64,000 nt of DNA from an uncultured Akkermansia sp. (GCA_964523105.1 CAZFZN010000012.1:103547-167546); one strand, 5' to 3'; shown: positions 1 to 54,513, counted from the stretch's first letter. Notes: generated by a model not told the origin, from the sequence alone. A program made the numbers and translations.

Positions 1-2
1 CT

Positions 3-13885: not shown

Positions 13886-14034
13886 GCGGTCAGGCGGGGC
13901 GTCTCCGCGCGGCGGGTAATCCGGCGGTAGTGACGGGATGCCGTGACTGCGAACGTCCGCCTGCAGGGCGCGGTGCGGCATGCGAACTTCAGGCGCCGGC
14001 CGGTGCATCAAGCAAAGCAGAGTGCTGAGGAGGA

Positions 14035-14158: not shown

Positions 14159-14246
14159 AAATTCCTGAAAAAGAAAATAGAGAGGAGGCCAACCGCAGCC
14201 GACCGAAGGAAGACAGGCGAACATTTCATCTTAACTGATGAGCCAA

Positions 14247-17462: not shown

Positions 17463-17599
17463 TCCGCCTGACTGGCAGGCCGCAATGATCCCGTCAATAA
17501 TAATATTTGGCAGCGGCCTCCTGCGGTTCAGGTAGTGGAGGAATAACTGAATCCGGAAAGCGGGAGATCAGCTTGTTCCCCGCAGGCTTTGGCAGGGTA

Positions 17600-19858
17600 T
17601 CAGGCGAGCGACACCGGGTCCACGTCCACAATGACGAAGACATCCGGCGGGAGTTTGGTGCTGCGAACGGCTTCCTTTATGTAATTGGTCAGGGTGCTGG
17701 TGTGGCGGGCGCGGAGGAGGACCTGGTAGCGGTACTGTCCGTGGCTGCGTTCCAGCGGGCTGGGCACCGGGTCGCCCATGAGGACGCCTTCGGGCAGGGC
17801 GGCGGCGAGTTTTTTGTGCAGGGTCTCCAGAGAGAACTCGGCGCGGCGCTGGTGTTCGCTGCGGCAGGTGATGAGCACGGCGTGGCCGTAGGGCGGATAG
17901 CCGCACTGCCGGCGGATTTCGAGTTCCTGTTCGGCGAAGGATTCGAAGTCGTGGCCGCGGGCATACTGGATGGCCGGGGAGTGCGGCGAAAACGTCTGGA
18001 TGACGACTTCGCCGAGCAGTTCGCCGCGCCCGGCGCGTCCGGCGACTTGTGTCAGGAGGGAGAAGGTGCGCTCGCCGGCGCGGAAGTCAGGGAGGTTGAG
18101 CGAGAGGTCGGCATTGAGCACGCCGACGAGGGTGACGGACGGAAAGTGCAGTCCGCGGGCGATCATTTGCGTGCCGACGAGGATGTCGATCTGCCGCGCC
18201 TGGAAGGCGTGGAAGGTTTCGCGGAGCTGGTGCTTTTGCTTCATGGCATCGGTGTCCATGCGGGCGATGCGGGCCTTGGGAAAAACGGTGCGCAGGGTTT
18301 CCTCCACGCGCTGGGTGCCGAATCCGGCGAAGAGAATCCCGGGGTCTTTGCATTCCGGGCAAAGTCGCGGCGGCACGCGCTGAAAGCCGCAGATGTGGCA
18401 GACGAGCCGGTCCAGCTCCTTGTGCATGGTCATGCTGACGCTGCAGTGATTGCACTTCACGACATGCCCGCAGGCCTGACACTGCACGCTGCCGGCGAAG
18501 CCGCGCCGGTTGAGAAAGAGAATGGTCTGCTCGCCGCGGTCGAGGCGCTTGCTGATGCCGATGCGGAGCTGCTCGCTGAGAATGGCGGGCGCGCCTTTGC
18601 CGCCGCGGCGCTTTTCGAGGCGCATGTCCACCACACGGACGAGCGGGAGTTTCGCATCGTCGGCGCGTTCGGTGAGGGTGACGAGGGTGTACTTGCCCCG
18701 CTGCGCATTGTGCCATGACTCCAGCGCCGGCGTGGCGCTGCCGAGCACGATGGCACAGGGTTCCATGGTGGCGCGCACGATGGCGACATCGCGCGCCTGA
18801 TAGCGCAGTTCGTTCTCCTGCTTGTAGCTGGTCTCGTGCTCTTCATCCACGATGATGAGGCCGAGGTTTTCCATGGGCGCGAAGACGGCGTTGCGGGTGC
18901 CGATGACGATGCGCGCCTGCCGTCGCAGCACGCGCTGCCAGCCGTCGAACCGCTCGCCCTGCGTGAGCTGCGAGTGCAGCACCGCCACTTCCTGCTGCAG
19001 GTGCGCGAAGCGGCTTTTGAAGCGGTCCACTGTTTGCGGCGTCAGGGAAATGCCAGGGACCAGCACGAGCACGCAGCGCCCGCTGTCGAGCACGCGCTGC
19101 GCGGCCTGGAGATAGACTTCGGTCTTGCCGCTGCCGGTGACGCCGTAGAGCAGCACGGGTTTGCTTTCCTGCGGATGCTCCACGGCGTGGAGAATGGTCT
19201 GCAGCGCCTCCTGCTGCTCAACATTCAAAGTGAGCGGCGCTGTGGGGAGAAATTCCTCGTCGCCATAGGGATCGCGCACCACCTGCTCCTCCTCTACGAC
19301 GACCCAGGGGGTTTTGGTGAGGGCTTTGAGCGACGGCGCCGGAAACGAGGACGCCGGCTGCGGCTCGCCGGCGGCGCGGAGAGTTTCGATGATCTCCGCC
19401 TGACGCTTCGCTTTCTTCTGCAGCTTCTCCATTTCCTCCGCCGGCGGTTCGGCGACGAGCCGGACGACGCGCTTCACCTTGTCCTGATGTTTGTCAGTGA
19501 GCACCGACTCCGGCAGCATGTAGCGCCGCACGGTATGCAGCGAGACGGCGTAGTAGTTGCTGATCCACTGGCCGAGTTTCAGCACCACCGGTGTGAGTTG
19601 CGGACGTTCGTCGTAGAGTTTCGCCAGGGGGCGCAGGCGCTGCGATTCGAGGTTTGCGGCGGGCATGACTTCCATCACGGTGCCCTGCTGGAACCGGTGC
19701 CGCAGCGGGACGAGCACGCGCGAGCCGGCGGCGACTTTGCCCTCCATCGCGGGGGGCACGGCGTAGTCGAATTCACGGTCTCCCGCGCCGTCGAGCAGGA
19801 CTCGCGCCGCCGTCATCGGGCGCGCGGATTCGTCAGGCGGGAGGAGTTCGGCTTGCAT
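17600..19858 (-). CDS. priA: Primosomal protein N' (replication restart helicase)
   Basis: GVTGSGKTEVY, IIVDEEHE, LGSATP, LNRRG, CQAC..CNHC..CHIC..CPEC, GTQRVEE, QVAGRAGR. Start reassigned to ATG 19858. Confidence 0.97.
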   Translation of the reverse strand: MQAELLPPDESARPMTAARVLLDGAGDREFDYAVPPAMEGKVAAGSRVLVPLRHRFQQGTVMEVMPAANLESQRLRPLAKLYDERPQLTPVVLKLGQWISNYYAVSLHTVRRYMLPESVLTDKHQDKVKRVVRLVAEPPAEEMEKLQKKAKRQAEIIETLRAAGEPQPASSFPAPSLKALTKTPWVVVEEEQVVRDPYGDEEFLPTAPLTLNVEQQEALQTILHAVEHPQESKPVLLYGVTGSGKTEVYLQAAQRVLDSGRCVLVLVPGISLTPQTVDRFKSRFAHLQQEVAVLHSQLTQGERFDGWQRVLRRQARIVIGTRNAVFAPMENLGLIIVDEEHETSYKQENELRYQARDVAIVRATMEPCAIVLGSATPALESWHNAQRGKYTLVTLTERADDAKLPLVRVVDMRLEKRRGGKGAPAILSEQLRIGISKRLDRGEQTILFLNRRGFAGSVQCQACGHVVKCNHCSVSMTMHKELDRLVCHICGFQRVPPRLCPECKDPGILFAGFGTQRVEETLRTVFPKARIARMDTDAMKQKHQLRETFHAFQARQIDILVGTQMIARGLHFPSVTLVGVLNADLSLNLPDFRAGERTFSLLTQVAGRAGRGELLGEVVIQTFSPHSPAIQYARGHDFESFAEQELEIRRQCGYPPYGHAVLITCRSEHQRRAEFSLETLHKKLAAALPEGVLMGDPVPSPLERSHGQYRYQVLLRARHTSTLTNYIKEAVRSTKLPPDVFVIVDVDPVSLA

Positions 19859-25816: not shown

Positions 25817-25952
25817 ATCGATATTCGTGGGACGAATGCAGGGATCCGGGTGTCCGGTGGAGCGGCCGGATGGATGAACATTTTGTGAATTCACACTGGT
25901 CTATCCGGTGCAATTCAGGATATGATCCCGGGGGTTGCTCCTCTCCAATCCG

Positions 25953-28900
25953 ATGTCCCCTTACATTCTCAGCCTTCTGGCCTGTGCCGGCCTGCTCTGC
26001 GTCCCCGGCAACGCCGCCGCAGCGGTGCTGACCGTGACCAGCGATGCTGACAGCGGGGCCGGTTCGCTCCGTGCAGCGATGGCGGCGGCACTCGAACAGG
26101 CCGGAGCCGATGAGATTGTGTTCGATGCGGTGCTGAACGGCAGGACCATTACCCTGGCTGGCGGGGAACTGGCGACGGGAGTGCAGCAGTTGACGCTGGA
26201 TGCCTCGGCATTGCCGGGCGGAATCATTTTAAGCGGCGGCGGCGTGAACCGGATTCTCCACGTGACGGCGGGAGGCACTCTGGATTTGCGCAGCCTGACA
26301 CTGCAGGGAGGCCATGCCTCCGGCGGGGATGGCGGTGCCGCGCTGAACGCGGGGACTTTGACCCTCTCCCGGTGCACCGTGCGTGATTGCACTGCGGCCG
26401 GAGAAGGCGGCGCGATCTCGAATCACGGCAGCCTGACGGTGACGCAGAGCACTTTCGCCGGCAACTCAGCGAATGCAGGCGGAGCCGTCGCCGGCGACGG
26501 CACACTGACAATGACGCACTGTACCGTGAGCGGCAACTCCGCCACGGTGACGGGAGGCGGTTTGCGGAACGAGTCCTCGTTGACCCTAACCAACAGCATC
26601 GTGGCCGGGAACAGTGCCGCTGCCGGGGCGGACATTTTCAACTCCGGGACCGTGACCCGAACGGGCGTGAACCTCGTGCAGGCGCTGCATAATGCCGGCG
26701 GCAGTGATTCCGGACCTGCGGCCATCGCGGCCGCGCCGCAACTGTTTCCCCTGGCAAATTACGGCGGCCCCACGCCCACGATGCCGCCGCGTGCGGTCAG
26801 CCCCGCACTGGACCGCATCGCCTCCTCTTCCTTCACAGAGGATCAGCGCGGAATGCCCCGTGTGATGTGGGGAGCCGCGGATGCCGGCGCGGTGGAGGCG
26901 GGAACGCAAACAGACGGGGCGTGGGAAGTGCGCGAATTCTACTACCCCGTGTCCCGGCCGGCTTCTCTGGAATCGCTGGAGGACGCGCTGGACCTCATGG
27001 CTGACCCTTCCGCCGTGGTGAAGGAGTCCGCTCCGGCCGTCGTCAATCATCATGATCCGGACAACGGCGGCGGTTCAGGTTACTTCGATGGGGACCAGCC
27101 GGTGCGGGTGGACAACTTGACGCCCGACCGGGCGGCCGGAGATGACAACAACTTCGCCACGGTGGCGCGCACCTTCATCCAGATTGCGGAAGAGGATGAC
27201 TACACGATCGGTTTCAGCAGCAGCGAAGGCGCCAGGTTGCGGATCTTTGGCGCTGATTTCATTTCCAGCACACGGCTCAATGCGTCCAATCCCGCCAATC
27301 CGGCGCACAGCGGCAACGAGTTGTCCTTTCCGGGGCTCACTGACAACTCGGCCACGCTGGGAGTCTGTCACCTGACGCCAGGCGTGTATGCGCTGGAGTT
27401 TGTGACATGGGAACAGTTCGGCAGTGCTTATTACGAGGTTTTTGCAGCCCGGGGAGTGCATACCTCGCTAAACGCGGCGTTCCGGCTCGCCGGTGAAATC
27501 GCTGCCGGAGGCTCCTACAGCACCGGTGCTTTGACACCGCAGGCGCTGCCGCCGGTTTGGATACGGGAATTCGAGGATGGGCCGGGGGATTTCTCCGTCA
27601 CCAATGTCAACGCGCCCTTCGACGGGCCGTGGACTCTCGATGAGGAAAACGGTTCCTGGAAAACTGCGGGGCAGGGGCCTGGTCTTGCGAGTGCGCCCTC
27701 CACACTTCTCACTTCACCGTCCGTAGTGATGCATTGTCACGGTGACGCTGTCCTGCAATTCACCCACCGGTTCAGCTTTGAAGAGGGCAACTGGGACGGG
27801 GGACAGGTGCTGCTGAGCGTGAACGGCGGGCCGTTCACGCTGGTGCCCCCCGCGGCCTTTACTCTGAACGGTTATACCGGAATTGTAACCTTCACCAGCA
27901 TCGCGGACATCCGGGGACAGCCGGCATTCGTTTTCGACTCGCCGGGTTATGTGGTGCCCGCCTATGTCACGAGCACGGCCAGACTGGGGACTTTTAACGC
28001 CGGCGATTCTCTGAGGGTACAGTTCCTGGCTTCATTTGACCGCGACACGAGCCGGGGCAATCCCGCGTGGGAAATTGATACTGTTAGTATCGAGCAGCAG
28101 TGCTCCGGAGCCAACCCCGGCTGGGAATTGACTTCCATCCGGAACGGCGCGGACAGTTTGGAGACGGCGCTGACCCAGTTGTTCAGCCATTGGGCGGGCT
28201 CCCCGCAGCCGAACTCGATCCGGTCATTCGCCGGCACGATCAATCTGTTCGATCCTCAGGCCGGCGGCGGCGGACACGGGCAAACACAGTCTCCGTTTCC
28301 TGGCGACGAGCCAGGGGATGACAATCAATTCGCGGTTGGGGCACGTGCTACACTGCACGTGCCGTCGGACGACTATTATACTTTCTGTGTCTTGGCGGAT
28401 GACGCGGCGCGGTTCCGCATTGCCGGAAGCCAGTGGTGGAATGTGGCCGGCACCCGGCCGGTGGTCACTCTGCCGGATGGTTTCCTGACGGCCGGCGGAG
28501 AGGAAGTCTTCGGCCAGGTGTTCTTGACTGCCGGCCCCCGCCGGATCGAACTGATTTATCAGGAAGGAGCCGGGGCTGCGTATCTCGGACTGTGGGGGGC
28601 GCGCGGCCGTTATGGCCGGTTCGATCCGGAGGTCTTCACTCCGGTGGGTGGACCGGGTATGATTCGTCCGGCGTCGCCCTTTACCCTCACACGCCAGGCG
28701 GGCTTGTCGCGCCCCGCGAATGACGATTTTGCCTCCGCCGCCGCCGCCTCGCCGCGGACCGTGGTTTGCACTGCCGGGGCCGGACTGGAGCCGGGCGAGC
28801 CGGGATTGGCCTCCGGGACGGTGTGGTGGCGCCTCTCCACCGGGGGCGGAACCGTTGTTTGTGACACTGCGGGCAGTGATTTCGACACGGCGATCGCCGT

Positions 28901-29705
28901 CTATTCAGGCACCAGCCTCAGCCAGCTCGCGCTTTTGGCATCCAACGACAATTACGACGGTTCATCCGCTGCAAGAGTGACCGTATCGGTGGGGACGCCC
29001 GGGGAACTCTACATTCAGGCGGGAGGGGCCGGGCCGGCTGCTGGTCGTCTCGCACTGAGCATCAGTTCAGCGGCTCTGCCCACCAATGATGCCTTTGCAA
29101 CCCCGCTGGATTTGGGCTCCGTGTTTTCTGTTAGTGCCTCCGGGGAGAATGACGCAGCGACGGCGCAGCCAGGTGAGCCCGCCCATGCGCCGGGCACTGC
29201 TCCGGCGTGCAGTGTTTGGTTCTCCTGGACTGCACCGGTGAGCGGAGAATTCACCCTGGATGCTCTCGGCAGTCGTTACCGGACCGTGCTGGGGGTTTAC
29301 ACGGGAAATAATCTCAGCGGACTGCATCGGGTCGCCGGGAGCGGCAGTGGTTCCGGACATCCGACCGGGGTTTCGTTCTTCGCCCTGATGGGAGTGACTT
29401 ACCGCATCGCTTTGGACGGAACCGGCCCCGGCGAGCGGGGCACATGGCGGCTGAACGTCGCCCACCGTCCCGCAGTCGTCGAGGCCGGGGTAATCGCCGG
29501 GCCTCCGCCCGGGGCCGCGCGAACATGGCGGATGACCTGGCGGTCGGAGCCATGGACCACCTATCGCATCGAACACTCGCCTGATCTAACTCTCTGGACA
29601 GGTATTGCAGAAGGCGTGCCTTCCGGCGGCGACTTTACCAGTTTTGAATACGGCAATCTCCAGCAAGGAGCCGGTCGGGGGTACTTCCGCATCGTCCGGA
29701 AGTAA
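25953..29705 (+). CDS. Large secreted modular surface protein (beta-helix/choice-of-anchor-Q-like, two PA14-like, two NDxFA Ig-like modules, C-terminal sorting-like domain)
   Basis: Signal peptide; DSGAGSLRAA; LANYGGPTPTM..DQRG..DAGAVE; DDNNFA/DDNQFA..YTF..DD; ANDDFASA and TNDAFA repeats with VWF.W; end RGYFRIVRK. Confidence 0.82.
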   Translation: MSPYILSLLACAGLLCVPGNAAAAVLTVTSDADSGAGSLRAAMAAALEQAGADEIVFDAVLNGRTITLAGGELATGVQQLTLDASALPGGIILSGGGVNRILHVTAGGTLDLRSLTLQGGHASGGDGGAALNAGTLTLSRCTVRDCTAAGEGGAISNHGSLTVTQSTFAGNSANAGGAVAGDGTLTMTHCTVSGNSATVTGGGLRNESSLTLTNSIVAGNSAAAGADIFNSGTVTRTGVNLVQALHNAGGSDSGPAAIAAAPQLFPLANYGGPTPTMPPRAVSPALDRIASSSFTEDQRGMPRVMWGAADAGAVEAGTQTDGAWEVREFYYPVSRPASLESLEDALDLMADPSAVVKESAPAVVNHHDPDNGGGSGYFDGDQPVRVDNLTPDRAAGDDNNFATVARTFIQIAEEDDYTIGFSSSEGARLRIFGADFISSTRLNASNPANPAHSGNELSFPGLTDNSATLGVCHLTPGVYALEFVTWEQFGSAYYEVFAARGVHTSLNAAFRLAGEIAAGGSYSTGALTPQALPPVWIREFEDGPGDFSVTNVNAPFDGPWTLDEENGSWKTAGQGPGLASAPSTLLTSPSVVMHCHGDAVLQFTHRFSFEEGNWDGGQVLLSVNGGPFTLVPPAAFTLNGYTGIVTFTSIADIRGQPAFVFDSPGYVVPAYVTSTARLGTFNAGDSLRVQFLASFDRDTSRGNPAWEIDTVSIEQQCSGANPGWELTSIRNGADSLETALTQLFSHWAGSPQPNSIRSFAGTINLFDPQAGGGGHGQTQSPFPGDEPGDDNQFAVGARATLHVPSDDYYTFCVLADDAARFRIAGSQWWNVAGTRPVVTLPDGFLTAGGEEVFGQVFLTAGPRRIELIYQEGAGAAYLGLWGARGRYGRFDPEVFTPVGGPGMIRPASPFTLTRQAGLSRPANDDFASAAAASPRTVVCTAGAGLEPGEPGLASGTVWWRLSTGGGTVVCDTAGSDFDTAIAVYSGTSLSQLALLASNDNYDGSSAARVTVSVGTPGELYIQAGGAGPAAGRLALSISSAALPTNDAFATPLDLGSVFSVSASGENDAATAQPGEPAHAPGTAPACSVWFSWTAPVSGEFTLDALGSRYRTVLGVYTGNNLSGLHRVAGSGSGSGHPTGVSFFALMGVTYRIALDGTGPGERGTWRLNVAHRPAVVEAGVIAGPPPGAARTWRMTWRSEPWTTYRIEHSPDLTLWTGIAEGVPSGGDFTSFEYGNLQQGAGRGYFRIVRK

Positions 29706-30089
29706 TGACTTTTCTCAGGGCGAACGCGTCCACGGTATCCCCACTGAAAACTCGAGGGCATTGGAGTATCGCCGTCCAGGATCACGTTGATCTCAATTCG
29801 GCCACCGCTGCCAAGCCCGGTTCCACGAAGCCTGAGTGGGGCGAGTCCCCGGAGAAGTCGCTGCCGATATAGCGCGGGCCGGCTGCAAATCGATTCCAAA
29901 ATCGCTCCCAATATGTTGTGTCGTGGATCAGAAAGCAAACTCGATAGAGCAGGAAAGCTTCGTTTCGGGATTTCAAGAAAAGTCGGAAATCCGTAAATTC
30001 TGGAAGAAAGTAAAGAAATCAGAAATTTTAGTTTGCGCAGGAACTATGATTATTATAGTATTTGCAAATAATTTCCCTGATTCAAGCCA

Positions 30090-31133
30090 ATGGATTACAT
30101 CGACGAACGCAGCCCCCTCGGCCAACGGGTTTACCAGATCGCCCAGTTGCCGGGAGTGAGTGATTTCTACATCACTCCGTGGGAACCGCTGTGCTACAAG
30201 CACAATGGGAGTTTGATCTACGATTCATTCGTTTATCATCCTGAGCAGCAGATGAAGGTGGAGCCGGGATGCGTTGACTACGCCATGACGTTCGGGGGTA
30301 TGCGATTCCGCGTGAATCGCATGGTGACGAAGGGCCGCTTCCGCTGGGTGCTTCGTTTGTTGCCGACCAAAATCCCGAAACCACAGGATGTTGCGGTGCC
30401 GGCCGCAGCGCTGAAGGCGTTCATGGAGGCGAAGAACGGTCTGTTTTTGATTTGCGGTGCGACGGGTTCCGGAAAGAGCACGACGATCGCCTCCATGATC
30501 CTCCATCGTGCGGAGCGCCGCCAGGAGCATGTCGTCACTTTCGAGGACCCGATTGAGTATGTTTACCCGGACGGTACGCCGTCCCTGGTCTCGCAGCGGG
30601 AAATCGGTGAGGACGATCTGGATTTCGGAATGTCACTTCGAGCCTCCCTGCGTCAGGCTCCGGATGTGATCGTCGTCGGTGAAATCCGGGATGGGGAGAC
30701 GGCTGAAATCGCACTCCAGGCGGCGGAAACGGGCCACGTGGTAGTGGCTACCCTGCACACCTCATCGGCCTCGCAGACAGTGCAGCGCTTCCTCAAACTC
30801 GTTCCCAGCGACCGTTTGGAAACCGCCCAGGCAAGTTTGGCGGATACCCTGAGGGCGATTCTGTGCCAGCGTCTGCTTTATGACACCATCAGGCAGCGGC
30901 GCTTTGCCATTCACGAACTGCTCCTGCAGTACGATTCCACGACGAATCTGATCCGCCGCGGAGAGTACAAGAAGCTCGACCAGGAACTCGAAACCGGATG
31001 GAAGAAGGGCATGATCTCCTGGGAGCGCAGTGTGGACATGCGCGGCGCCGAGGGCTGGAACGTTCCCCAGATCGAGAAGACCGGCTACAGCCAGGATGAG
31101 GTGGAGGCCTTTATGTCCGAGCACGGCCGCTGA
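30090..31133 (+). CDS. pilT: PilT/PilU-like type IV pilus ATPase
   Basis: SDFYI N-terminal motif, GATGSGKST, TFEDPIE, RQAPDVIVVGEIRD, ETGH..TLHT, degenerate NLIRRGE tail. Confidence 0.85.
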   Translation: MDYIDERSPLGQRVYQIAQLPGVSDFYITPWEPLCYKHNGSLIYDSFVYHPEQQMKVEPGCVDYAMTFGGMRFRVNRMVTKGRFRWVLRLLPTKIPKPQDVAVPAAALKAFMEAKNGLFLICGATGSGKSTTIASMILHRAERRQEHVVTFEDPIEYVYPDGTPSLVSQREIGEDDLDFGMSLRASLRQAPDVIVVGEIRDGETAEIALQAAETGHVVVATLHTSSASQTVQRFLKLVPSDRLETAQASLADTLRAILCQRLLYDTIRQRRFAIHELLLQYDSTTNLIRRGEYKKLDQELETGWKKGMISWERSVDMRGAEGWNVPQIEKTGYSQDEVEAFMSEHGR

Positions 31134-31167
31134 TCCAGGCGAACCAATCCCTACAAAAAACGACTCC

Positions 31168-32058
31168 ATGAAACTCAAAGACATCAAAGACGTACTGACC
31201 TTCCGTTCGTTCCGGCCGGAGCCGGACGACAGCAGCGCTCCGTGGACGAAGCGCTTTGTGCGCGAGAATTCGCTGGCTCTGAACATCGGGCGCCGTCGCG
31301 TTAGCTGGTCAGTGCTGGACAAGAACGGTGAATTCCGGGACGCCGGCTTTCAGGAGGGCGAGTTCAAAGAGGTCATCAATCAGATGGGCCACGAATGGCG
31401 GGCGTTGACGGACAACGGCTGGTGTTCCGTGTCCCTGAATCACCGCTTCGTGATAACCCTCGAAGTGAACGTGAGCCGGCGAGCGGGTCTGGAACAGCAG
31501 TTGCGCACCAACCCGAAAAGTGTGCTCGGTGCCAAAGCGGAGCGCGGCAAGCGCTATTGGCTGCAGCATAATCCGGAGAGCAATACCAGCGTCCTCCTTT
31601 CCATCGATGAAGAGGCCGTAAACAAGACAGTCTCCATGCTAAAGGAAGCGGGTCTGCAGGCCGGACGCGTCTGCGTCGGTGTTTACGGAATGATGCTCGA
31701 CCTGATCGAGCAGGTCGCGGAGGCGCGGCGGGCGAGAGCCGTTTCCAATCCCGGCGAGCCGTTCGGGAATGTTGTCATGGTCACCTGTTCGGAGGGGTCG
31801 GTTTGTGCGCTCAGCCAGCGTGAGGAGCAGTGGATGGAACTCCGTTCGCGCACCGACCTTTACACTGACGACATGTCTCCGGTGCTGGATATCATTCTGC
31901 CGCTTATTCAGAACGCAGGACCGAACTCAAACATCGTCTTCATGAACGATGAAGCCGGCTGCCCACTTCCTGATTTGCTGCGTCAGCGCATTCCCGGGGC
32001 ACTGGTCAGCGATGTAACCGTTCCTGCGCAGCTGTGGAAACTTCTAACCGACTCCTGA
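31168..32058 (+). CDS. Putative PilM-like cytoplasmic pilus assembly protein
   Basis: Operon position; actin-like pattern LALNIG..VSW, LKEAGL, soluble composition. Start reassigned to ATG 31168. Confidence 0.55.
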   Translation: MKLKDIKDVLTFRSFRPEPDDSSAPWTKRFVRENSLALNIGRRRVSWSVLDKNGEFRDAGFQEGEFKEVINQMGHEWRALTDNGWCSVSLNHRFVITLEVNVSRRAGLEQQLRTNPKSVLGAKAERGKRYWLQHNPESNTSVLLSIDEEAVNKTVSMLKEAGLQAGRVCVGVYGMMLDLIEQVAEARRARAVSNPGEPFGNVVMVTCSEGSVCALSQREEQWMELRSRTDLYTDDMSPVLDIILPLIQNAGPNSNIVFMNDEAGCPLPDLLRQRIPGALVSDVTVPAQLWKLLTDS

Positions 32059-32062
32059 TTCT

Positions 32063-32635
32063 ATGAGCAAAACCATCATGCATGACCTGAAGACTGAGCG
32101 TACGGAACTGGCGCCGCCTTTGCCCGCCATTCTCATGGTGCTGCCAGTTCTCTTCTACATCGCCGCCGCGGGTTCCATCGGACTTGGAGCCTTGTTCACT
32201 GTGAAGGCGAAGCAGGCCCAGGCTGACGAAAGCCGCGAACTGGATGGAGAGCAGGAGTTGAACCGGACAATCGCTTCTCTTACGCAGGAGCAGAAGCAAA
32301 TCGAAGATACCACCACCAGGGCCAAAGAAGTGGAAACGTGGATCGACAGCAGCCAGCCGCTGATGGATGTCGTCGTTGCCGTCATTAATAGTGTGAGAAC
32401 AGGCAATACACTCTCGTCCATGAAGCTGACACGCATCCCTGACCGCCCGGATCAGATCGAGATGCGGCTTCAAATAAATTCCGGCGGCACCGTGCAAAAG
32501 GAGGAGACCGTTCAGTCGCTCGTCAAAGCGGGCTACCAGGCATTCCGCGATGATCTCATCGGGGACAAGAACGACCGGCTCGGGGACGTGACCTACACGG
32601 CAACGCTCGTAAAGACTCAGATAGGGGATGACTAA
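32063..32635 (+). CDS. Putative PilN-like inner membrane protein
   Basis: N-terminal TM, coiled coil, C-terminal ferredoxin-like segment (LSSMKL..IEMRLQI); follows the PilM-like gene. Confidence 0.6.
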   Translation: MSKTIMHDLKTERTELAPPLPAILMVLPVLFYIAAAGSIGLGALFTVKAKQAQADESRELDGEQELNRTIASLTQEQKQIEDTTTRAKEVETWIDSSQPLMDVVVAVINSVRTGNTLSSMKLTRIPDRPDQIEMRLQINSGGTVQKEETVQSLVKAGYQAFRDDLIGDKNDRLGDVTYTATLVKTQIGDD

Positions 32636-32658
32636 TTTTACCTCAAGACCATTCAGTT

Positions 32659-33225
32659 ATGAATACCAAACATTTATCCTGTGTCCTACTCTTTGCAGTA
32701 GTCATCTGCCTTTTCATGGGCACGAAAGTGCTCAATCAACGGATGGTCACCGCGACGGAGGCTTCCGAGGACGCGAGAGCCCGCCATGAAGCCGCCCAGT
32801 CGAAGCATACGATGGCCAGAGCAGTACTCGAAAAGGTCCGCACGGACACGGCCGCACACCGCAAGTTCCTCGAAATGTGGCGGCAGAAATTTGAAATGAG
32901 TGGAAGCGACGCTATCGCCGCTAAAAACGAGTTTGGGCGCATGTTAAAGCGCTTTCCTAATTTGACTCCATTCGGCAACCAAACCAACCCGCCGGTTGAG
33001 AACAAGGACATGAGCTATGTGAACCGCCGCGTGGCCACCACGGTCAAGCTTGAAGGCGATGCCGAAAAAGCGGTGCAGTTGTTGGCTTCAATCGAACGCG
33101 AACTGCCCACCAGCCGCATTTCCTCACTCGAGATCAGGAAAGGTCAGCGCAACAACGACATTGAACTCGACTTGTCCGTCGAATTCCCGCTCCTCGCGGT
33201 GCCCGCCGGCGAAAAACAGCCTTAA
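32659..33225 (+). CDS. Putative PilO-like inner membrane protein
   Basis: N-terminal TM, coiled coil, VKLEG..VQLLASIERELPTSRISSLEI..LDLSVEF, typical of PilO/GspM. Confidence 0.65.
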   Translation: MNTKHLSCVLLFAVVICLFMGTKVLNQRMVTATEASEDARARHEAAQSKHTMARAVLEKVRTDTAAHRKFLEMWRQKFEMSGSDAIAAKNEFGRMLKRFPNLTPFGNQTNPPVENKDMSYVNRRVATTVKLEGDAEKAVQLLASIERELPTSRISSLEIRKGQRNNDIELDLSVEFPLLAVPAGEKQP

Positions 33226-33243
33226 TAATATTCTCCTGCTGCT

Positions 33244-34119
33244 ATGAATACTCGCCAAATTATTACTGCCGCTCTTTTCGGGTGGGTGTCAACCGCCGGT
33301 GCGGAAGTGGAGATCACCATGGCCAAGCTCCGGGACATCGGTTTACTTCCTCAGGATAAGGCAGAACTCCGCCCTGAGGATAAACTTGATATGAAGCGCC
33401 GCAATCCCTTCGCCGAGCGCAAGAAGGCTGCGCCGAACAAGCCGGTCGAACAGGTTGAAACTGAAGAAAGTAAACTGCGGGCGTTCTTTGACAAAGAAAA
33501 GGTCAATGGAATCATGAAATTTGGGGACAAACACATCGTGTCTCTGGGGCGCCTTAGTTTGGAGGAGGGCCAGATTATTCGCCCCATCATTCCCAACCAG
33601 ACACAAATTCTCCGGGTTATTAAAGTGACGGATGCAGAACTGGAGATCGGCTGGGTCGAGGACGCCACGATTGGACTGGAACCTGTGGTGCCCCGGAAGA
33701 TTCAAAAGAAGATCAATTTGCGCCCTGAAGTTAGAGCACTTGTTGCCGGGGCTGATGAAGCTGGGGAGAAGGCTGCTATGTATGTTATGGATGACAAAGG
33801 AACAGTCGTCGTTCCTCACAAGAATGTATTTCCCAATCCATCGGATATTCTGGACAGCATTCCTCCAGGCAGCGACACCAATCCTGAGTCGGTTCTCAAT
33901 GAACAGGAGCGCCAGTCGCTCAACAATGCTTTGCAAGCATCGCAGAACGGAAATCCCCCGTCGATTCCGAAGCCGGATATCGATCCGTCGTCAGCCGTGC
34001 CTTCAGAGGCTCCTCCGGCACCCCCACTTGAAGACCCCGAGGATGCCGTGCAACCAGATCCTGATCTTGTTGAGCCGCCATCAGGCAATCAGCCTGCGGG
34101 CCAGCCTGGCCGCAGGTAG
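33244..34119 (+). CDS. Exported protein in the PilP position, with Pro/acidic tail
   Basis: Signal peptide, RRNPFAER, VNGIM..EGQII..VIKVTDAELEI beta segment as in PilP/GspC; low-complexity C-terminus; no lipobox. Confidence 0.5.
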   Translation: MNTRQIITAALFGWVSTAGAEVEITMAKLRDIGLLPQDKAELRPEDKLDMKRRNPFAERKKAAPNKPVEQVETEESKLRAFFDKEKVNGIMKFGDKHIVSLGRLSLEEGQIIRPIIPNQTQILRVIKVTDAELEIGWVEDATIGLEPVVPRKIQKKINLRPEVRALVAGADEAGEKAAMYVMDDKGTVVVPHKNVFPNPSDILDSIPPGSDTNPESVLNEQERQSLNNALQASQNGNPPSIPKPDIDPSSAVPSEAPPAPPLEDPEDAVQPDPDLVEPPSGNQPAGQPGRR

Positions 34120-34135
34120 CAATCCCGTCCTCGTC

Positions 34136-35167
34136 ATGACTTCCCCACGCTACATCATGGCGGCAGTTTCGCGTTATCGGCGCGGGTTCTCTCTCATTGA
34201 ACTCCTGGTTGTGGCCGGAGTGGGCGCACTGCTCTTTACCGCCGCCGCCCTTACCTTCCGAGTCATGGCCAAGAACCACCGGAATCCCGGAACCTTTCAG
34301 AAGGTTCCGCTTCCGGCGGGCGTGGGCGACAATTTCTACCCCGGTTCCGGGCTTTCCTTTGTGGACAGCTACGTAGCTCCGAATTTCGGACGCTGTTCGC
34401 AGGCTGATGCCCTGCGCACGTTATTTCTGGAGGAAGTCGAAAAGTCAGTGGCGGTTTTCATTCTGCCCCGGGGTGGGCACGTCAATACCATTCGTGGCCG
34501 AACCATCAATCTGTATGGCACCCTCCCTCAGGCTTTGGACACCCCTGCCGCGTTCCGGGAATTCCTGGCGGCAAATCCGGACACCGCCACTGCCGCCCAG
34601 GTATTCACTTCCTATCGCGGCGCACCGCCGGAGTCCGGCACTGTCACCACGACCACTATTGATCAGGACACCGGAGATACGATAGTCACCACTTCGACCC
34701 AGGCGATCACCAACGCGACGGTGTTTCTGCTGCAACCTTCGGGGTCCAACACCCAGCTTTGGATTCGTTGCGTTTATGAATTGGATTATTTGGCCATGAC
34801 GCCCAATTCGAGTGACGCAGCGGCTCCTGATGTTTCCTGTGTGTTCGCTTCAGTCCGCCGATATGTGGACTATACTCTGACACATTATTACGACTGTGTT
34901 TTCCGTGACTCGACAGTCTCCGACGCGGGCGTGCCGTGTGTCCATTTTGAACGCGCCGACCGCGCGATAGTGGCCGAAGGCGCTGCGGACATATTTAAGC
35001 GGGCCGCTAATCAGCCTTTTTACCTGATGTGGTGGCCGGACCCCGGACTTGCCCGGCTGCAGACCACAGGAGGCAGTTATACAGCCGGAACACCGCAAGC
35101 GGCCTATGCCCGTCACGAGGGGCAGACCTCCTATGTGTTCGTCATCCCGCAATTTCCTGCACTTTAA
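34136..35167 (+). CDS. Minor pilin (PilW/GspJ-like) with prepilin cleavage site
   Basis: RRG|FSLIELLVVAGVGALLF class III signal peptide with E5. Start reassigned to ATG 34136. Confidence 0.85.
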   Translation: MTSPRYIMAAVSRYRRGFSLIELLVVAGVGALLFTAAALTFRVMAKNHRNPGTFQKVPLPAGVGDNFYPGSGLSFVDSYVAPNFGRCSQADALRTLFLEEVEKSVAVFILPRGGHVNTIRGRTINLYGTLPQALDTPAAFREFLAANPDTATAAQVFTSYRGAPPESGTVTTTTIDQDTGDTIVTTSTQAITNATVFLLQPSGSNTQLWIRCVYELDYLAMTPNSSDAAAPDVSCVFASVRRYVDYTLTHYYDCVFRDSTVSDAGVPCVHFERADRAIVAEGAADIFKRAANQPFYLMWWPDPGLARLQTTGGSYTAGTPQAAYARHEGQTSYVFVIPQFPAL

Positions 35168-35179
35168 GCTGTTCCGCCA

Positions 35180-36655
35180 ATGAAAAGCCACACTTTATCG
35201 TTTCATGGCCGCCGCGGAGGAGTTATGGCCATCGCCCTCGTCAGTATCGGGGCTTTGACCATTGGCTTTACGACTTGGGTGGGCCTGCTCGGTCAGCGAA
35301 GCCGCGCCGGGGAGGTGGAAGAGCACGCGGCCCGCCGCCGCATCGCGTCGTGGAACTCCCGCGGCGCCATCAGAGAGTATGCTCTCGCCCGCGCCATAAC
35401 CTCCAGCCTGGATGACGACGGAATGAACTTCGATCCCCTCGCCGGCTGGAGTGTCACCGCTGCTCCTTCATGGTCAGGCTATCCCATGGAAAGCAATACC
35501 CGGCTGGCCGGATTGAACGGGTTTTCTTTCACCTGGGACTATCCTTATTCCAAAGTAATCGACACCCAGTCCGGCACTTTCGCGCTCGATTTCGTGCAGG
35601 CCGGCAACGGAAGACTGGATGCAGATTATACGGCGACCGCCAGCTATCAGAAAACTTATATACGAAGCCGCTGCCCGGTGCTGGGAGGTGATCTTCTCAT
35701 TGTACACCGTTCGAGCCTGACGCCTCCTGTCGATCCGGTCGTGGCCGGGAATATCTCCGTCACAGGCCGGGTGCTCCACTTTGTTCCTGAACTGTCCGAC
35801 ACTGCTTATACCGCCCGTTCGCTTCGGTTCACGTCTGCTCCGTCCTCCGCGGGCACGGGACTTCGTCCACTGGACCTTGCCGGCAATGCGATTGTGCCGT
35901 CGAATCTTTCTTGGACCCCTATAACATTCGGCAATATTGCAGGAAGTGCTGATTTCAGCGGGCAGTTGAATGTGATCGATGATGCTGCCAACGGCGGCAA
36001 TTCTCTTAGACAGAAGCTCACCGGATCGCCCGCCACCATTCAAATCACAGGTGCGACCACCATGAGCGATCCGCGCGGATTCGAAAGTGACGGGAACGGG
36101 TTGATCACGCTTACTCCTTCAATCGGGGCCACTAACCCTGCGGACATTCCCAGTATCGTGGTGGACAGCGAAGTTGAAGAAATCGTCATTGAAGGACAGG
36201 ATGACAGCAACTTCGCCACCTATGCGCGTTACCGGCCATCCATGGCATTGTGCTATGTCCAGGATGCTGCATCGACGCGACAGCTTCACACCATTCGCCT
36301 GCGCAGGCAGAACAGCCGGCGATTGATTCTGGCCATTAAACAGGAAGGCCCCAATCCGGGCACTCCTGTGAACATCATTGTCGAGGACACTCACTCCGTG
36401 AGCAACTGGCACATGGTGATCCTGGCGGAGAACACTCCTCTGGCTTTTTCCGCCGATGCCGCGGTATCCACGGTGAACCTCGTCGGCGGCATTCAGGCGA
36501 ATGCTCCGATCACCGGCCCTTCCGGCACGCAGACCCTTAATCTTGAACTGGAGACCGATACCCGCGGGCTGATTCGCATGACGCCGCGCGCTGCGTGGGT
36601 CGAGGTCGTTATGCCGGATAAGATCCCGGGAACCTCAAACGACAACACCTGGTAA
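35180..36655 (+). CDS. Large PilX/GspK-like minor pilin
   Basis: RRG|GVMAIALVSIGALTIG, lacking E5 as PilX/GspK pilins do; 491 aa; sits between two pilins. Confidence 0.7.
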   Translation: MKSHTLSFHGRRGGVMAIALVSIGALTIGFTTWVGLLGQRSRAGEVEEHAARRRIASWNSRGAIREYALARAITSSLDDDGMNFDPLAGWSVTAAPSWSGYPMESNTRLAGLNGFSFTWDYPYSKVIDTQSGTFALDFVQAGNGRLDADYTATASYQKTYIRSRCPVLGGDLLIVHRSSLTPPVDPVVAGNISVTGRVLHFVPELSDTAYTARSLRFTSAPSSAGTGLRPLDLAGNAIVPSNLSWTPITFGNIAGSADFSGQLNVIDDAANGGNSLRQKLTGSPATIQITGATTMSDPRGFESDGNGLITLTPSIGATNPADIPSIVVDSEVEEIVIEGQDDSNFATYARYRPSMALCYVQDAASTRQLHTIRLRRQNSRRLILAIKQEGPNPGTPVNIIVEDTHSVSNWHMVILAENTPLAFSADAAVSTVNLVGGIQANAPITGPSGTQTLNLELETDTRGLIRMTPRAAWVEVVMPDKIPGTSNDNTW

Positions 36656-36664
36656 CGGCCCGCC

Positions 36665-37105
36665 ATGAAAACGCAGCAATTCATTTCGCCAAAGCATCGC
36701 GCCGGCTATACGCTCATTGAGATCATGGCTGCGGCGGGCTTGATCGCCGCGGCGGTCGCGGCCGCGTCTTCGCTCTCAATGACGATGACTGCTCAGGAGG
36801 AACTCTCGAGGGGGCAGTCAGCGGCGATACGCTACGGTGAAGCCGTTTCACGGCTCTGGCAGCTGGGAGTGAATCCCTCAGCCGTGCTCCTCGCGCAGCA
36901 TCAGGGATTGCAGGGCAGCAATGGATCCTCTCCCATGAGTTTCTCCATCGTGGACGGCACTCCTGTCGATCTGGGTGACGACGGAGGGATTGCAGAGGGC
37001 ACTGTGGAGACGGCAACTGTTACAATTACCTGGCGACCATACGGTTCCACCTCGGACTCATTCATCTCATTCGACGTACTTCGTCCCGCCCCTGTTCACC
37101 GATAA
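36665..37105 (+). CDS. Minor pilin (PilV/GspI-like)
   Basis: RAG|YTLIEIMAAAGLIAAA; short globular domain ending VTITW. Confidence 0.85.
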   Translation: MKTQQFISPKHRAGYTLIEIMAAAGLIAAAVAAASSLSMTMTAQEELSRGQSAAIRYGEAVSRLWQLGVNPSAVLLAQHQGLQGSNGSSPMSFSIVDGTPVDLGDDGGIAEGTVETATVTITWRPYGSTSDSFISFDVLRPAPVHR

Positions 37106-37141
37106 CGCACCTCCTTTGCCACAGCTAACCGACTCCACGCC

Positions 37142-38398
37142 ATGCTCAAGAAAGTAGTCCTCACCAATGTCAATTCCGGGCGCACTCAGGAGATCATCGT
37201 GGACACTGATGATGACGCCAAAGCCATCGTCGGCTCGGGTAAAGCCAGCAATGAAGTGGCAAGGGTGACGACGATTTCCGGCGCCGATGAGAAAGTCTAT
37301 CGCCTGTCCGTAAAGAAGCCGAATCTGGAGGACCGGGTCAATCTGTTTTCCGGAATCGCACGGTGCCTTGAACGCAACATCTCGACCATAAAGAGCTTCG
37401 AGTTGCAGGCGAACCGGGTTAGATCGCCACGGTACAAGGGGACGGTCGCAGATATTGCTGCGCAGATAAGTCAGGGGGAAAAAGTCAGCGATGCCATGGG
37501 ACGGCATCAGGACCTCTTTGGAGAGGCGCTGCTTGCGCTGATTCGCGCCGGTGAGGAAGCCGGCCAACTCCCCGAAGTGTGCCGGCGCATTGCCAAGGGA
37601 CAGAAGAAGACTCTGAAGATTCTCAAGAAATTGAAGAGCGGCATGATCTACCCGTGCATCGTGCTGATCATCGGTGTGGGGGTCATCATCACCATGTCCA
37701 TGACGCTCGTGCCGGCATTGAAGGGGCTCTACGGGCAGTTTAACAGCGAACTGCCGACGGCGACCAAGGCCATGATGATACTCTCCGATATTCTGCTCAG
37801 TCAGCCGTGGCTGGTGGCGCTGCCGATCTTCGGGATGGTCATGCTGTTTCGAAACTGGGGTAAAATTTGCGCCATTCCCGGCGTGCAGCGATTCTGGCTC
37901 AAACTCCCGACGGTTGGAAACATCGTCCGAAAGAGTTCAGCGGCGGTCAGTTTCCGTACGCTGGCCATGCTCATTGAGAGCAATGTCCGGGTCTCGACCG
38001 CACTCCGGATTACCGGAGAAAGCGCCCCTAACGTCACTCATCGCGAGTTTTTCTCCTCCGTAAAAGAACATATCGAGGAGGGTCTCGCCCTGCATGAATC
38101 CTTCCTGCTGGAATCCCACCGCCTCGGCCCGGACGGCCGCCCGATTTCCGGACTGATGCAGCTCAGCAGCGAAACCGGTTCCTCGACTGACATGCTTGAG
38201 GAGATCGCCGACGACTATGAGGAGGAACTGGATAATATCGGGAATCAGATAGACAAGATTCTGGAGCCAATCACGATTATCGTCCTCGGCATCATGGTTG
38301 GGTTTCTCATCTACGCCATCTACTCGCCCATCTTCAATCTTGGCAAGGTCGTTCTTCCCAAGACAAAGCCGGGTGCCGCCGCGGCCGCAAAGAAGTAG
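37142..38398 (+). CDS. pilC: PilC/GspF-family inner membrane platform protein
   Basis: GEKVSDAM..LIRAGEEAGQL, MIYP, ELPTATK, second repeat GLALHES..ETGS..MLEEIADDYEEE..LEP..IYSPIF. Confidence 0.92.
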   Translation: MLKKVVLTNVNSGRTQEIIVDTDDDAKAIVGSGKASNEVARVTTISGADEKVYRLSVKKPNLEDRVNLFSGIARCLERNISTIKSFELQANRVRSPRYKGTVADIAAQISQGEKVSDAMGRHQDLFGEALLALIRAGEEAGQLPEVCRRIAKGQKKTLKILKKLKSGMIYPCIVLIIGVGVIITMSMTLVPALKGLYGQFNSELPTATKAMMILSDILLSQPWLVALPIFGMVMLFRNWGKICAIPGVQRFWLKLPTVGNIVRKSSAAVSFRTLAMLIESNVRVSTALRITGESAPNVTHREFFSSVKEHIEEGLALHESFLLESHRLGPDGRPISGLMQLSSETGSSTDMLEEIADDYEEELDNIGNQIDKILEPITIIVLGIMVGFLIYAIYSPIFNLGKVVLPKTKPGAAAAAKK

Positions 38399-38587: not shown

Positions 38588-39751
38588 CTACGGGCCACAA
38601 CTGTAGATAACAACATTCCTGGTCGATCTCCCCGCCGCGATGATTTCCGGGCGGGAGTCCCCGTCGAGGTCTGCGATTTTGAGGTCTTCGCAAGCCATCG
38701 TGTTGGGTTCGCTGACCCAATGGCTCGTCCAGGTTCCGTCCTTTTCCTCGTAGATTTTGATGCCGGTTTGTTTATCGGCGTTGGGCTCGCGCCAGCCGGC
38801 GACGATTTGGAGGCGGCCGTTTCCCAGAACATCGCCTGTAGCCAGGGCGTGCCCCTGATTGAAGGAGCGGTCCAGAATGCGGCGGTGCCATGTGCGGGTC
38901 TTGTCGTCCCGCGTGAAGAGTGTCAGCAGTGGTCCGTGAAAGGGCTCGATACAGGTGATTCGGTCCGGTCCCGGACCAAGGCGGACTTCTCCGGCCCCGC
39001 CCCAGGCGGGCGTTTCCGCGTCGCTGAGCGGGAGGCGGTTCGTTCCCCAGCCGGTTCCGTCCGGCACGGCTCTCAGGAGCGCCTCTTTTCCACCGATGAG
39101 AAGTTCATCTTTGTCCGGGAGGGACTGCAGATCGAAATTGTGAGTGACATGCAGGGATTCGTCGAGCACCGACTGTTTCCATGCGGCGGGATCTCCTGGA
39201 CTGCCTGGAAAGGCGTAGGAGATGATCCTGACTCCTTTGGGACCTGCGCCCCCACTGTTGCCACGCCCGTGGAGCGGCAGGACGACGAGGGCGTATGATT
39301 TGGCTCCGGTGCGCACCCAGTGCATGCGGTGGGTAGTGGGCTCGTGGGGAAGAACGACGGGTTTCCACAGTTCACCGTCTTTGTCCGGGCGCTGGAGGTA
39401 AAGGACGGCGCCGCTTTCGGCGACATTGTTCGTTTCACCGGGATTCCACTGCGCACCGACGGCGATTTCGACCTTGCCGTCTCCGTCCAGGTCACGGGCG
39501 GCGATGCAAACGTTGTCGCGCGGAGTGAGATTCCTGGCGATGACAGATTTTTTCCAGCCGGGATTTTGATACCAGACGATCTCCCTGGCGTCGGCGAGGA
39601 GGATGTCAGGCTTTTTATCGCCGTCCACATCGCCGATAGCGAGACCGTAACCGATCGTGATTTTGTCATCCACGACGGTGGCCTTGAAAGCGGGGGCCGC
39701 TACTGCGGCGGCGGCAAGGGTGTGAAGCAGGAAACAGAGATGCGGGCTCAT
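38588..39751 (-). CDS. Secreted FG-GAP/VCBS repeat beta-propeller protein
   Basis: Signal peptide; GDVDGDKKPDI, DLDGDGKVEI, GDVLGNGRLQI, DLDGDSRPEI repeats. Start reassigned to ATG 39751. Confidence 0.85.
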   Translation of the reverse strand: MSPHLCFLLHTLAAAAVAAPAFKATVVDDKITIGYGLAIGDVDGDKKPDILLADAREIVWYQNPGWKKSVIARNLTPRDNVCIAARDLDGDGKVEIAVGAQWNPGETNNVAESGAVLYLQRPDKDGELWKPVVLPHEPTTHRMHWVRTGAKSYALVVLPLHGRGNSGGAGPKGVRIISYAFPGSPGDPAAWKQSVLDESLHVTHNFDLQSLPDKDELLIGGKEALLRAVPDGTGWGTNRLPLSDAETPAWGGAGEVRLGPGPDRITCIEPFHGPLLTLFTRDDKTRTWHRRILDRSFNQGHALATGDVLGNGRLQIVAGWREPNADKQTGIKIYEEKDGTWTSHWVSEPNTMACEDLKIADLDGDSRPEIIAAGRSTRNVVIYSCGP

Positions 39752-39970
39752 CCCCGGATTGGGCCGCGGAAACCAGGTGAGAGCAACGGCGGGAATGCGG
39801 ATGGCAGTCCGTGAGCGATGCCTGCGGAGAATCGCAATGCGCCGAATTTCCATAAGTAAACTTTCTGCGCCGTTTGACTAAAATACATGGTTCCAGGTGA
39901 AAGTGCACCCATTCCGGATATTTCCGCCAGCACCACATTCATGCCGCTCATGAATACGCTCTGCACATAG

Positions 39971-52760: not shown

Positions 52761-52799
52761 TCAGTGCTCAGTGCTCAGTGGTCAGTGCTCAGTGGTCAG
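52761..52799. repeat. Heptamer tandem repeat (TCAGTG[C/G]) x5 plus partial unit
   Basis: Units start at 52761, 52768, 52775, 52782, 52789 and 52796 (partial). Confidence 0.9.
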
Positions 52800-54294: not shown

Positions 54295-54513
54295 GCGGCC
54301 TAAGTAAATGAGAAAGCATGCGGACGCAATTTGAATCCATCTTGCGTTGGTAATTTGCGATTGAGTACTCCTTCCACGGGAAGTGCCTCTCACCGTGCGC
54401 TTCTTCTTCAAGATCGAATCGCTTCCGTTTTGCAGCGAGACCATCTGTTCGCCGGCACAGCGCGGAGGCTGCACAACTTGACAGGCATGGTCACGATATG
54501 ATAGGATCAACGT

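Follow-up and report, generated by a model that had tools for sequence, protein, structure and literature searches.

The stretch of DNA analysed here, a window of 64 kb, carries at positions 30090-38398 what is very probably the conserved core operon of a type IVa-pilus-like machine of uncultured Verrucomicrobiales, the other modules of which lie elsewhere. The pilus system is most likely an ordinary one with its genes distributed among several loci, rather than a novel machine driven by a PilT-type motor. The interval is filled on the plus strand by nine co-directional open reading frames, all of them intact and separated by gaps of 4-37 nt. Promoter and terminator consensus scans gave nothing better than shuffled sequences. 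The upstream region and the nine genes are as follows.

29706..30089, plus strand: intergenic region 5' of the operon, a site near the start of a divergent secretin in many relatives
30090..31133, plus strand: PilT/PilU-family hexameric ATPase, 347 aa (Pfam T2SSE, E = 1.7e-44; NCBIfam pilT_fam, 274 bits)
31168..32058, plus strand: predicted PilM-like cytoplasmic actin-fold protein, 296 aa (AF2 model and Foldseek)
32063..32635, plus strand: putative PilN-position bitopic protein, 190 aa (position and topology)
32659..33225, plus strand: PilO/GspM-like bitopic protein, 188 aa (Pfam T2SSM_b, 22.8 bits; NCBIfam GspM, E = 5e-6)
33244..34119, plus strand: PilP-position secreted protein of putative function, 291 aa (position, signal peptide and motif)
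34157..35167, plus strand: large minor-pilin-like protein, 336 aa, with a class III signal (RRGFSLIELLVV) (Pfam N_methyl, TIGR02532 and motif scan)
35180..36655, plus strand: putative GspK/PilX-like large pilin-like protein, 491 aa, or 476 aa if started at 35225 (N-terminus)
36665..37105, plus strand: small minor-pilin-like protein, 146 aa, with a class III signal (RAGYTLIEIM) (Pfam N_methyl and motif scan)
37142..38398, plus strand: PilC/GspF inner-membrane platform, 418 aa, with two T2SSF domains (Pfam T2SSF, E = 3.6e-39, two stretches)

The initial annotation had read this order as PilT-like, M, N, O, P-like, W-, X- and V-like pilins and PilC. The nine reading frames, the ATPase, the platform and the PilM fold were borne out and the O position has a narrow Pfam match, whereas the N, P, W, X and V labels could be followed only as far as position, size, topology and short motifs. 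The product of 31168..32058 is predicted to be a separate cytoplasmic actin-fold protein of the PilM type. Its AF2 model (pLDDT 87.6, pTM 0.86) retrieved Pseudomonas aeruginosa PilM as the top Foldseek match (5eox, E = 4e-12), together with cytoplasmic EpsL/GspL (1yf5, 4pht); PilM structures matched the model with E-values of 4e-12 to 2e-9 and modest TM-scores of 0.45-0.51. At the sequence level, neither Pfam nor phmmer against PDB sequences gave a match. No Pfam model covers the family, whose 361 homologues, found only in Verrucomicrobiales, are all annotated as 'hypothetical'.

The proteins at the next three positions are more divergent. A phmmer search of PDB sequences returned nothing significant for the M-, N- or O-position proteins, and Pfam scans of 23-27 orthologues each, and of the consensus of each family, yielded no more than isolated weak matches at the N, O, P and X positions. 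In the orthologue alignment, the N-position protein has a conserved cytoplasmic N-terminal peptide (D8, L9, K10, R13, P19, L20 and P21) followed by a transmembrane helix, a coiled coil and a C-terminal domain, a topology that fits PilN. GspL_C was matched weakly by one of 27 orthologues (E = 7e-4), and hhalign against a single E. coli HofN sequence gave a probability of 1%. The O-position protein, whose topology fits PilO, passes the Pfam T2SSM_b threshold narrowly (22.8 versus 21.7 bits), and two of its 24 orthologues match this model. At the P position, the alignment revealed a signal peptide, an invariant R-N-P-F motif, a conserved core of about 100 residues and a Pro-rich tail; E. coli HofP has RDPF where this protein has RNPF. 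No Pfam match was found for it with the single sequence, the orthologues or the consensus, and its single-sequence AF2 model (pLDDT 41) was unusable.

Class III prepilin N-methylation motifs were found in the 336-aa and 146-aa proteins by Pfam N_methyl and a motif scan, and a six-frame scan of the 64 kb showed that these are the only two prepilin motifs in the window. The smaller protein is weakly GspI/ComGE-like (NCBIfam gspI, E = 0.02). The protein between them begins with RRGG-VMAIALV, without Glu5, and in this resembles E. coli GspK; Pfam, NCBIfam and consensus searches gave no family match. Its gene most likely starts at 35180 rather than at 35225 because the longer form fits the N-terminus of the family consensus. 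The N-, P- and X-position proteins may have PilN-, PilP- and PilX-like roles, and the three minor pilins of the operon probably prime the tip of a filament.

The ATPase has the Walker A motif at residue 123, the Asp box at 150, the Walker B motif at 191 and the His box at 214, and a motif check found no zinc CxxC…CxxC motif in its 347 residues. PilT/PilU is its best NCBIfam match; the 274 bits fall below the pilT_fam cut-off of 319, and the PilB, GspE, ComGA and TraJ models reached 118-153 bits. A ComGA-like identity was rejected (138 bits against a ComGA cut-off of 300), as was a TadA-like one (50 bits on TadA-type models). Among solved structures, the nearest are without exception PilT (E = 5e-53 to 4e-45) or PilU, while PilB/GspE structures match at 1e-24 to 3e-30. 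A neighbour-joining tree separated a PilB/GspE side from a PilT/PilU side with 100% bootstrap and placed the window's ATPase on the latter; the grouping with PilT was one half of what the initial annotation had itself set against its proposal of a new filament type. The verrucomicrobial PilT-like proteins form a clade of their own, 37-43% identical to solved PilTs. Since they also fall below the PilT cut-off, a changed role is conceivable, and these enzymes may have departed from that of PilT. The PilT/PilU-family ATPase would nevertheless most likely power retraction.

Within the 64 kb, the claim that PilB/GspE, a secretin, a major pilin and a prepilin peptidase are lacking proved true. Pfam scans of 39 open reading frames, tblastn with verrucomicrobial secretins and PilB-like proteins, and the six-frame motif scan found no PilB/GspE, secretin, peptidase A24 or further prepilin. 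With 11 verrucomicrobial secretins as queries, tblastn found no secretin remnant at 29706..30089 or anywhere else in the window, and with E. coli GspO it found no prepilin peptidase at any locus examined. The statement that the only ATPase is PilT-like is therefore right for the window but does not extend to the system, because in some relatives the cluster includes a PilB-type ATPase.

As to whether the gene order recurs, it does: all nine genes stand in this order on every contig of sufficient length, at about 40 loci in Verrucomicrobiales metagenome assemblies, with ATPase identities of 65-93%. The flanks vary, and at least four different neighbourhoods occur within the window's clade alone (defined by an ATPase identity of at least 85%). 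In 20 loci, a divergent secretin lies 0.3-1.3 kb upstream of the ATPase; that of locus L044 was confirmed as Pfam Secretin. The adjoining secretins are about 630-730 aa long and in most loci closer to E. coli GspD than to HofQ. In five loci (L022, L025, L032, L045 and L046), the genes after PilC encode 4-5 small prepilins and then a PilB/GspE-type ATPase of about 725-745 aa with a zinc CxxC…CxxC motif, and the spacing of the NCBI locus tags BH23VER1_06280 and BH23VER1_06400 matches these PilC-pilin-PilB loci. Split arrangements exist as well. In assembly ERZ25072999, a 1.28-Mb contig carries the secretin and the core operon (L044) and a 1.25-Mb contig carries four pilins and a PilB-like ATPase (L043); the two contigs are labelled 8x and 9x, have a GC content of 0.53 and 0.54, and are mutual best tetranucleotide matches (r = 0.93). 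L051 is a stand-alone pilin–PilB module in the largest PilB-like cluster, with 38 members among the 120 matches listed. Its composition matches that of L011, L013, L014 and L016 (r = 0.96-0.97), a lineage that is sister to the window's clade and has an adjacent secretin and no adjacent PilB. By this compositional match, L051 may belong to the sister lineage.

The window's clade itself lends itself to another reading. At every locus seen, neither the secretin nor the PilB module was nearby, and no contig of the clade was among the 120 PilB-like matches listed; the PilB-like proteins P0352, P0351, P0358 and P0315 fall in other lineages, and P0078 is a PilT-like protein. Across these loci and the 120 matches listed, no gene for a secretin or a PilB-like protein could be assigned directly to a genome of the clade. 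In four sequencing runs with the locus, the window's organism is present at about 3-6x and fragmented; a more abundant relative accounts for the PilB-like and pilin contigs, which stand at 8-23x, and these runs therefore give no linkage. One could then imagine that the clade has lost the secretin and pilin–PilB modules and that the PilT-family ATPase and PilC alone assemble and disassemble a short periplasmic endopilus, devoid of a secretin, from the three pilin-like proteins of the operon. CpaF, a single ATPase, drives the Tad pilus in both directions. The absence of a secretin, of PilB and of a further pilin from the 64 kb is in line with such a machine, and so is purifying selection, which indicates that the operon is in use: dN/dS was 0.03-0.38 over all nine genes in comparisons with five relatives, namely L004, L006, L008 and L010 of the window's clade and L013 of the sister lineage. 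We nevertheless consider this very improbable. Elsewhere, orthologous operons of the same gene order are found joined to a PilB-type ATPase and a secretin, and split but complete arrangements occur in ERZ25072999 and L051. The branch of the window's ATPase shows no rate acceleration in the tree or in dN/dS, and neither the ATPase nor PilC of the clade shows a rate acceleration or a motif change. The P-position protein is retained, and in known systems PilP docks to the secretin. Moreover, being missing from the 120 PilB-like matches listed does not prove absence.

Pseudogene decay was rejected on the same dN/dS values. That the operon is a decaying remnant left after the loss of its partner modules, as their absence from the window might suggest, is scarcely credible: all nine frames are open, and six or more members of the clade have kept the operon in varied genomic contexts. 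Altogether, because the operon recurs linked to a secretin or to PilB, because split arrangements occur, because the ATPase lies on the PilT side and because the genes are under purifying selection, the proposal of a short endopilus or new type IV filament subtype with a PilT-clade motor is not supported, and the other proposal of the initial annotation, that components are borrowed from elsewhere in the genome, is favoured. The split in ERZ25072999 and L051 indicate this by comparison, and we infer by extension that the window's own genome would retain the PilB and secretin modules, the second half of what the initial annotation had set against a new filament type.

We therefore propose the following scenario for the split pilus system. 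The core operon would supply the platform PilC and an alignment subcomplex made of the PilM-like protein, the PilN- and PilO-like bitopic proteins and the periplasmic P-position protein. Its three minor pilins would prime the filament tip and its PilT/PilU-family ATPase would retract the filament. Extension would be driven by the separate PilB/GspE-type ATPase of about 725-745 aa, encoded with the 4-5 small pilins, and the outer membrane would be crossed through the secretin of about 630-730 aa. The three modules appear to be linked in a variable manner, either contiguous (divergent secretin, then PilT to PilC, then pilins and PilB) or dispersed, and in the window's clade both outer modules would lie away from the core operon, outside the 64 kb.

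Taken across the three modules, the part list matches that of the type IVa pilus, as in the PilBTCMNOPQ set of P. aeruginosa and Myxococcus xanthus: PilT and PilB ATPases, PilC, a separate PilM, N/O-like proteins, a P-position protein, a secretin, and minor and small class III pilins. In Myxococcus, these genes form one single cluster, as they do in some of the relatives here, but the modules of the present lineage are often dispersed. The gene order also differs, with PilT first, the MNOP-like and minor pilin genes between PilT and PilC, the secretin divergent and PilB last, after the pilins. Further differences lie in the proteins themselves. The M-, N-, P- and X-position proteins have diverged beyond what Pfam and NCBIfam recognise, the PilT-like clade stands apart from solved PilTs as described above, and PilB has an N-terminal region of about 380 residues, mostly without a Pfam match.

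Several parts are shared with type II secretion systems (GspC-M, as in the gsp operon of E. coli K-12), namely a GspF-like platform, a GspM-like protein, a GspD-like secretin, a GspE-like zinc ATPase in the partner module and possibly I/J/K-like minor pilins. One could thus read the three modules as a functional type II secretion system, in which an endopilus piston exports proteins, the PilT-like ATPase resets the piston and no surface pilus is made. The preference of most secretins for GspD over HofQ, the GspM match of the O-position protein and the sizes and order of the operon pilins, which resemble those of a GspI/J/K-type tip set, fit this reading, as do the many large secreted glycan-active proteins encoded nearby in the organism. 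However, type II systems have a fused GspL in place of separate PilM and PilN, whereas here the M-position protein is separate and soluble and a bitopic protein comes next. The operon also encodes a PilT-family ATPase, which type II secretion systems are not known to have. No GspC-type protein was recognised by Pfam in the window or among the P-position orthologues, and the platform scores equally for PilC (190 bits) and GspF (189 bits) in NCBIfam and is thus undiscriminating. Type II secretion therefore seems to us unlikely, and we retain the type IVa-like pilus.

The Com pilus (ComGA-ComGG) and the Tad pilus (CpaF/TadA) provide a precedent for a type IV filament driven by a single or short ATPase, but their accessory genes differ and the ATPase described here scores far lower on their models than on PilT/PilU. 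Among the papers listed by full-text literature searches, none described this nine-gene cluster. Within the same order, Verrucomicrobiales, the Amuc_1098-1102 cluster of Akkermansia muciniphila has been described, and Verrucomicrobia have been argued to make type IV pili exported via the PilQ secretin (PMC4960237). Amuc_1098 PilQ has 907 aa and a TPR/BAM-like N-terminus (PMC4960237), in contrast with the shorter secretins here, and the two clusters look like different systems.

If a machine with PilT as its only motor did prove true, a motor of the PilT clade would for the first time be seen to assemble a type IV filament, and the operon would matter far more if a complete genome of the clade truly had no PilB-type ATPase. 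As it stands, the analysis makes it possible to annotate a cluster that is widespread in Verrucomicrobiales and in which every middle gene carries the label 'hypothetical': a PilM-like family is delimited, along with likely partners at the PilN, PilO and PilP positions and a minor-pilin set. Co-localisation rules of the MacSyFinder type would call such split systems incomplete. The pilus system of this lineage appears as three modules shuffled around the genome.

The core of the filament system is a run of nine open reading frames on the + strand, spaced by gaps of 4-37 nt, in a window of high GC content (about 0.62) which, judging by how close homologues of its proteins are named, comes from uncultured Verrucomicrobiales. 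The initial annotation correctly sensed here a real type IV filament core operon. The operon and three of its products are as follows.

30090-38398 (+): nine-gene core operon
Product 1, 347 aa: T2SSE ATPase of the PilT/PilU family
Product 2, 296 aa: M position, PilM-like by predicted structure
Product 9, 418 aa: platform with two T2SSF domains (Pfam)

The ATPase (product 1) carries the Walker A, Asp box, Walker B and His box motifs but has no CxxC…CxxC zinc motif, a feature of extension ATPases. In NCBIfam, PilT/PilU comes on top with 274 bits, below the curated cut-off of 319, followed by the weaker scores of TraJ (153 bits), ComGA (138), GspE (129) and PilB (118). By sequence, the nine solved structures that match it best all belong to PilT or PilU (E 5e-53 to 4e-45), against 1e-24 to 3e-30 for PilB, PilF and GspE. 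The annotation had suggested an ATPase phylogeny as a check; a neighbour-joining tree was built on 229 core columns from eight PilT-like and five PilB-like verrucomicrobial proteins, together with YggR, HofB and GspE of E. coli and four sequences of PilT or the PilT/PilU family with solved structures. The split between PilB/GspE and PilT/PilU received 100% bootstrap. The verrucomicrobial PilT-like proteins, including the window's ATPase on its short branch, fall on the PilT/PilU side as a clade of their own (100% support), which this tree does not place firmly with respect to PilT, YggR or the PilU-like sequence.

The other products are more divergent. Product 2 had no match in Pfam, NCBIfam or the PDB sequences. 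Its model, based on an alignment holding 37 homologues, reached a pLDDT of 87.6 and a pTM of 0.86, and because the structures it resembles most are those of P. aeruginosa PilM and the EpsL/GspL cytoplasmic domain, it is a PilM-like actin-fold protein. Product 4 (O position) exceeds the Pfam T2SSM_b cut-off by a narrow margin, and products 6 and 8 bear prepilin N-methylation motifs, the only two of their kind in a six-frame translation of the whole 64 kb. No search that we ran assigned a family to products 3, 5 and 7, for which topology and motifs suggest the N, P and X roles, respectively: product 3 shares with PilN a layout of conserved cytoplasmic peptide and transmembrane helix, product 5 combines a signal peptide with an invariant RNPF motif resembling the RDPF of E. 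coli HofP, and the N-terminus of product 7 is GspK-like but has no Glu5.

The M-position family comprises 361 members, all from Verrucomicrobiales and every one annotated as hypothetical. Scanning one genome per GTDB species gave 31 loci, in every case from MAGs, and exact-protein look-ups added further ones. ATPase identities range from 65 to 93%, and the nine-gene order is unchanged in every sufficiently long locus. Since the flanks differ even between the closest relatives (at least four different neighbourhoods at an identity of at least 85%), the operon is a self-contained unit. Compared with five relatives, dN/dS was 0.03-0.38 across all nine genes, rough values because dS is near saturation. 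Two environmental MAGs carrying the operon (loci L010 and L018, GC 0.55-0.58) were deposited as Akkermansia muciniphila; these names look like mislabels because the loci cluster with uncultured Verrucomicrobiales.

We then considered the parts missing from the window. The annotation had remarked that a PilB/GspE ATPase, a secretin, a prepilin peptidase and a major pilin are not found here, which holds for the window: Pfam scans of 39 ORFs across the 64 kb found none of these nor any further pilin, and 11 secretins and two PilB-like proteins, all verrucomicrobial, used as tblastn queries matched only the ATPase core encoded by the PilT-like gene. It had proposed from this a short endopilus or new filament subtype run by a PilT-clade motor alone. 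That proposal is unsupported and we regard it as very improbable, as relatives pair the same operon with a PilB-type ATPase and a secretin. In 20 loci a divergent secretin gene (~630-730 aa) lies just upstream of the PilT-like gene; it is revealed by E. coli GspD or HofQ as tblastn query and, in the related locus L044, by the Pfam Secretin domain. Downstream of PilC, L022, L025, L032, L045 and L046 carry 4-5 prepilins (125-185 aa), then an ATPase of ~725-745 aa that possesses CxxC…CxxC and is named GspE/PulE/PilB-like in the sources; the spacing of the NCBI locus tags BH23VER1_06280 (M-like) and BH23VER1_06400 (PilB-like) agrees. Because relatives join secretin, pilins and PilB-type ATPase to the operon, the full system would be a type IVa-pilus-like machine with both PilB-type and PilT-type motors.

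The PilB-like proteins (P0241, P0352 and relatives; L025 12451-14005) have a conserved N-terminal region of ~380 residues, Pfam-blank in most members and matching T2SSE_N (PF05157) in a few. In L046, a HisKA_3 histidine kinase and a GerE/LuxR response regulator (6045-7804) separate PilC from the pilin–PilB module, and 4 kb beyond lies a second T2SSF and T2SSG pair (15839-17658), so that such genomes probably hold at least two type IV filament systems.

The modules also occur apart. In assembly ERZ25072999, a 1.28 Mb contig (L044) carries the secretin, the nine genes and one pilin, and a 1.25 Mb contig (L043) carries four pilins and the PilB-like ATPase, with unrelated genes on both sides. The two contigs have coverage labels of 8x and 9x and GC of 0.53 and 0.54 and are mutual best tetranucleotide matches (r 0.93). 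L051 is another stand-alone pilin–PilB module, whose PilB-like protein belongs to the largest cluster (38 among the 120 PilB-like matches listed). Its composition fits L011, L013, L014 and L016 (r 0.96-0.97), a lineage with an ATPase 81-82% identical to the window's, an adjacent secretin and no adjacent PilB. Given the ERZ25072999 split and the stand-alone L051, dispersal of the three modules is normal in the group, including, with L051 placed by composition, the lineage that is sister to the window's clade.

Immediately before the operon, the window encodes a 1256 aa beta-helix/PA14 protein (25935-29705, +). L044 likewise has two ~1250 aa Laminin_G_3/PA14 proteins upstream (1-6531), separated from the PilT-like gene by an acyltransferase and the secretin, a comparison which suggests that the window's clade has lost a secretin gene once located here. 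The surroundings (3384-5384, 9554-11578, 14394-17462, 38588-39853) abound in sulfatases and also encode a giant trypsin-like/Laminin_G protein and a propeller protein of the FG-GAP type, as is typical of polysaccharide-degrading Verrucomicrobiales. Two short overlapping ORFs (13069-13653 and 13595-14224, both -), the first with a partial GH43 match, could be one glycoside hydrolase gene broken by a frameshift. Further on, a 700 aa large serine recombinase with Resolvase and Recombinase domains (52789-54891, -) adjoins a 1931 aa RHS-repeat protein (55281-61076, +), and GC falls to 0.51 at 60001-62000, against about 0.62 elsewhere; these features could mark an integrated element or else a polymorphic-toxin locus.

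The annotation had alternatively supposed that components are borrowed from elsewhere in the genome. This stands for the relatives with split modules; for the window's own genome, orthology, purifying selection and those split arrangements argue that PilB-like and secretin modules are present, and they would sit away from the core operon. No assembly of the window's clade could be linked to a secretin or PilB-like gene by read mapping, cluster membership or protein look-ups, some matches belonging to other lineages. The closest known system is the type IVa pilus machine of Pseudomonas and Myxococcus, from which the verrucomicrobial one differs in gene order, in its divergent accessory proteins, in the long N-terminal region of its PilB and in the dispersal of its modules. 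We propose that the operon quite probably belongs to an ordinary but very divergent, modular type IVa-pilus-like system of Verrucomicrobiales, with the secretin and pilin–PilB modules elsewhere in the genome.
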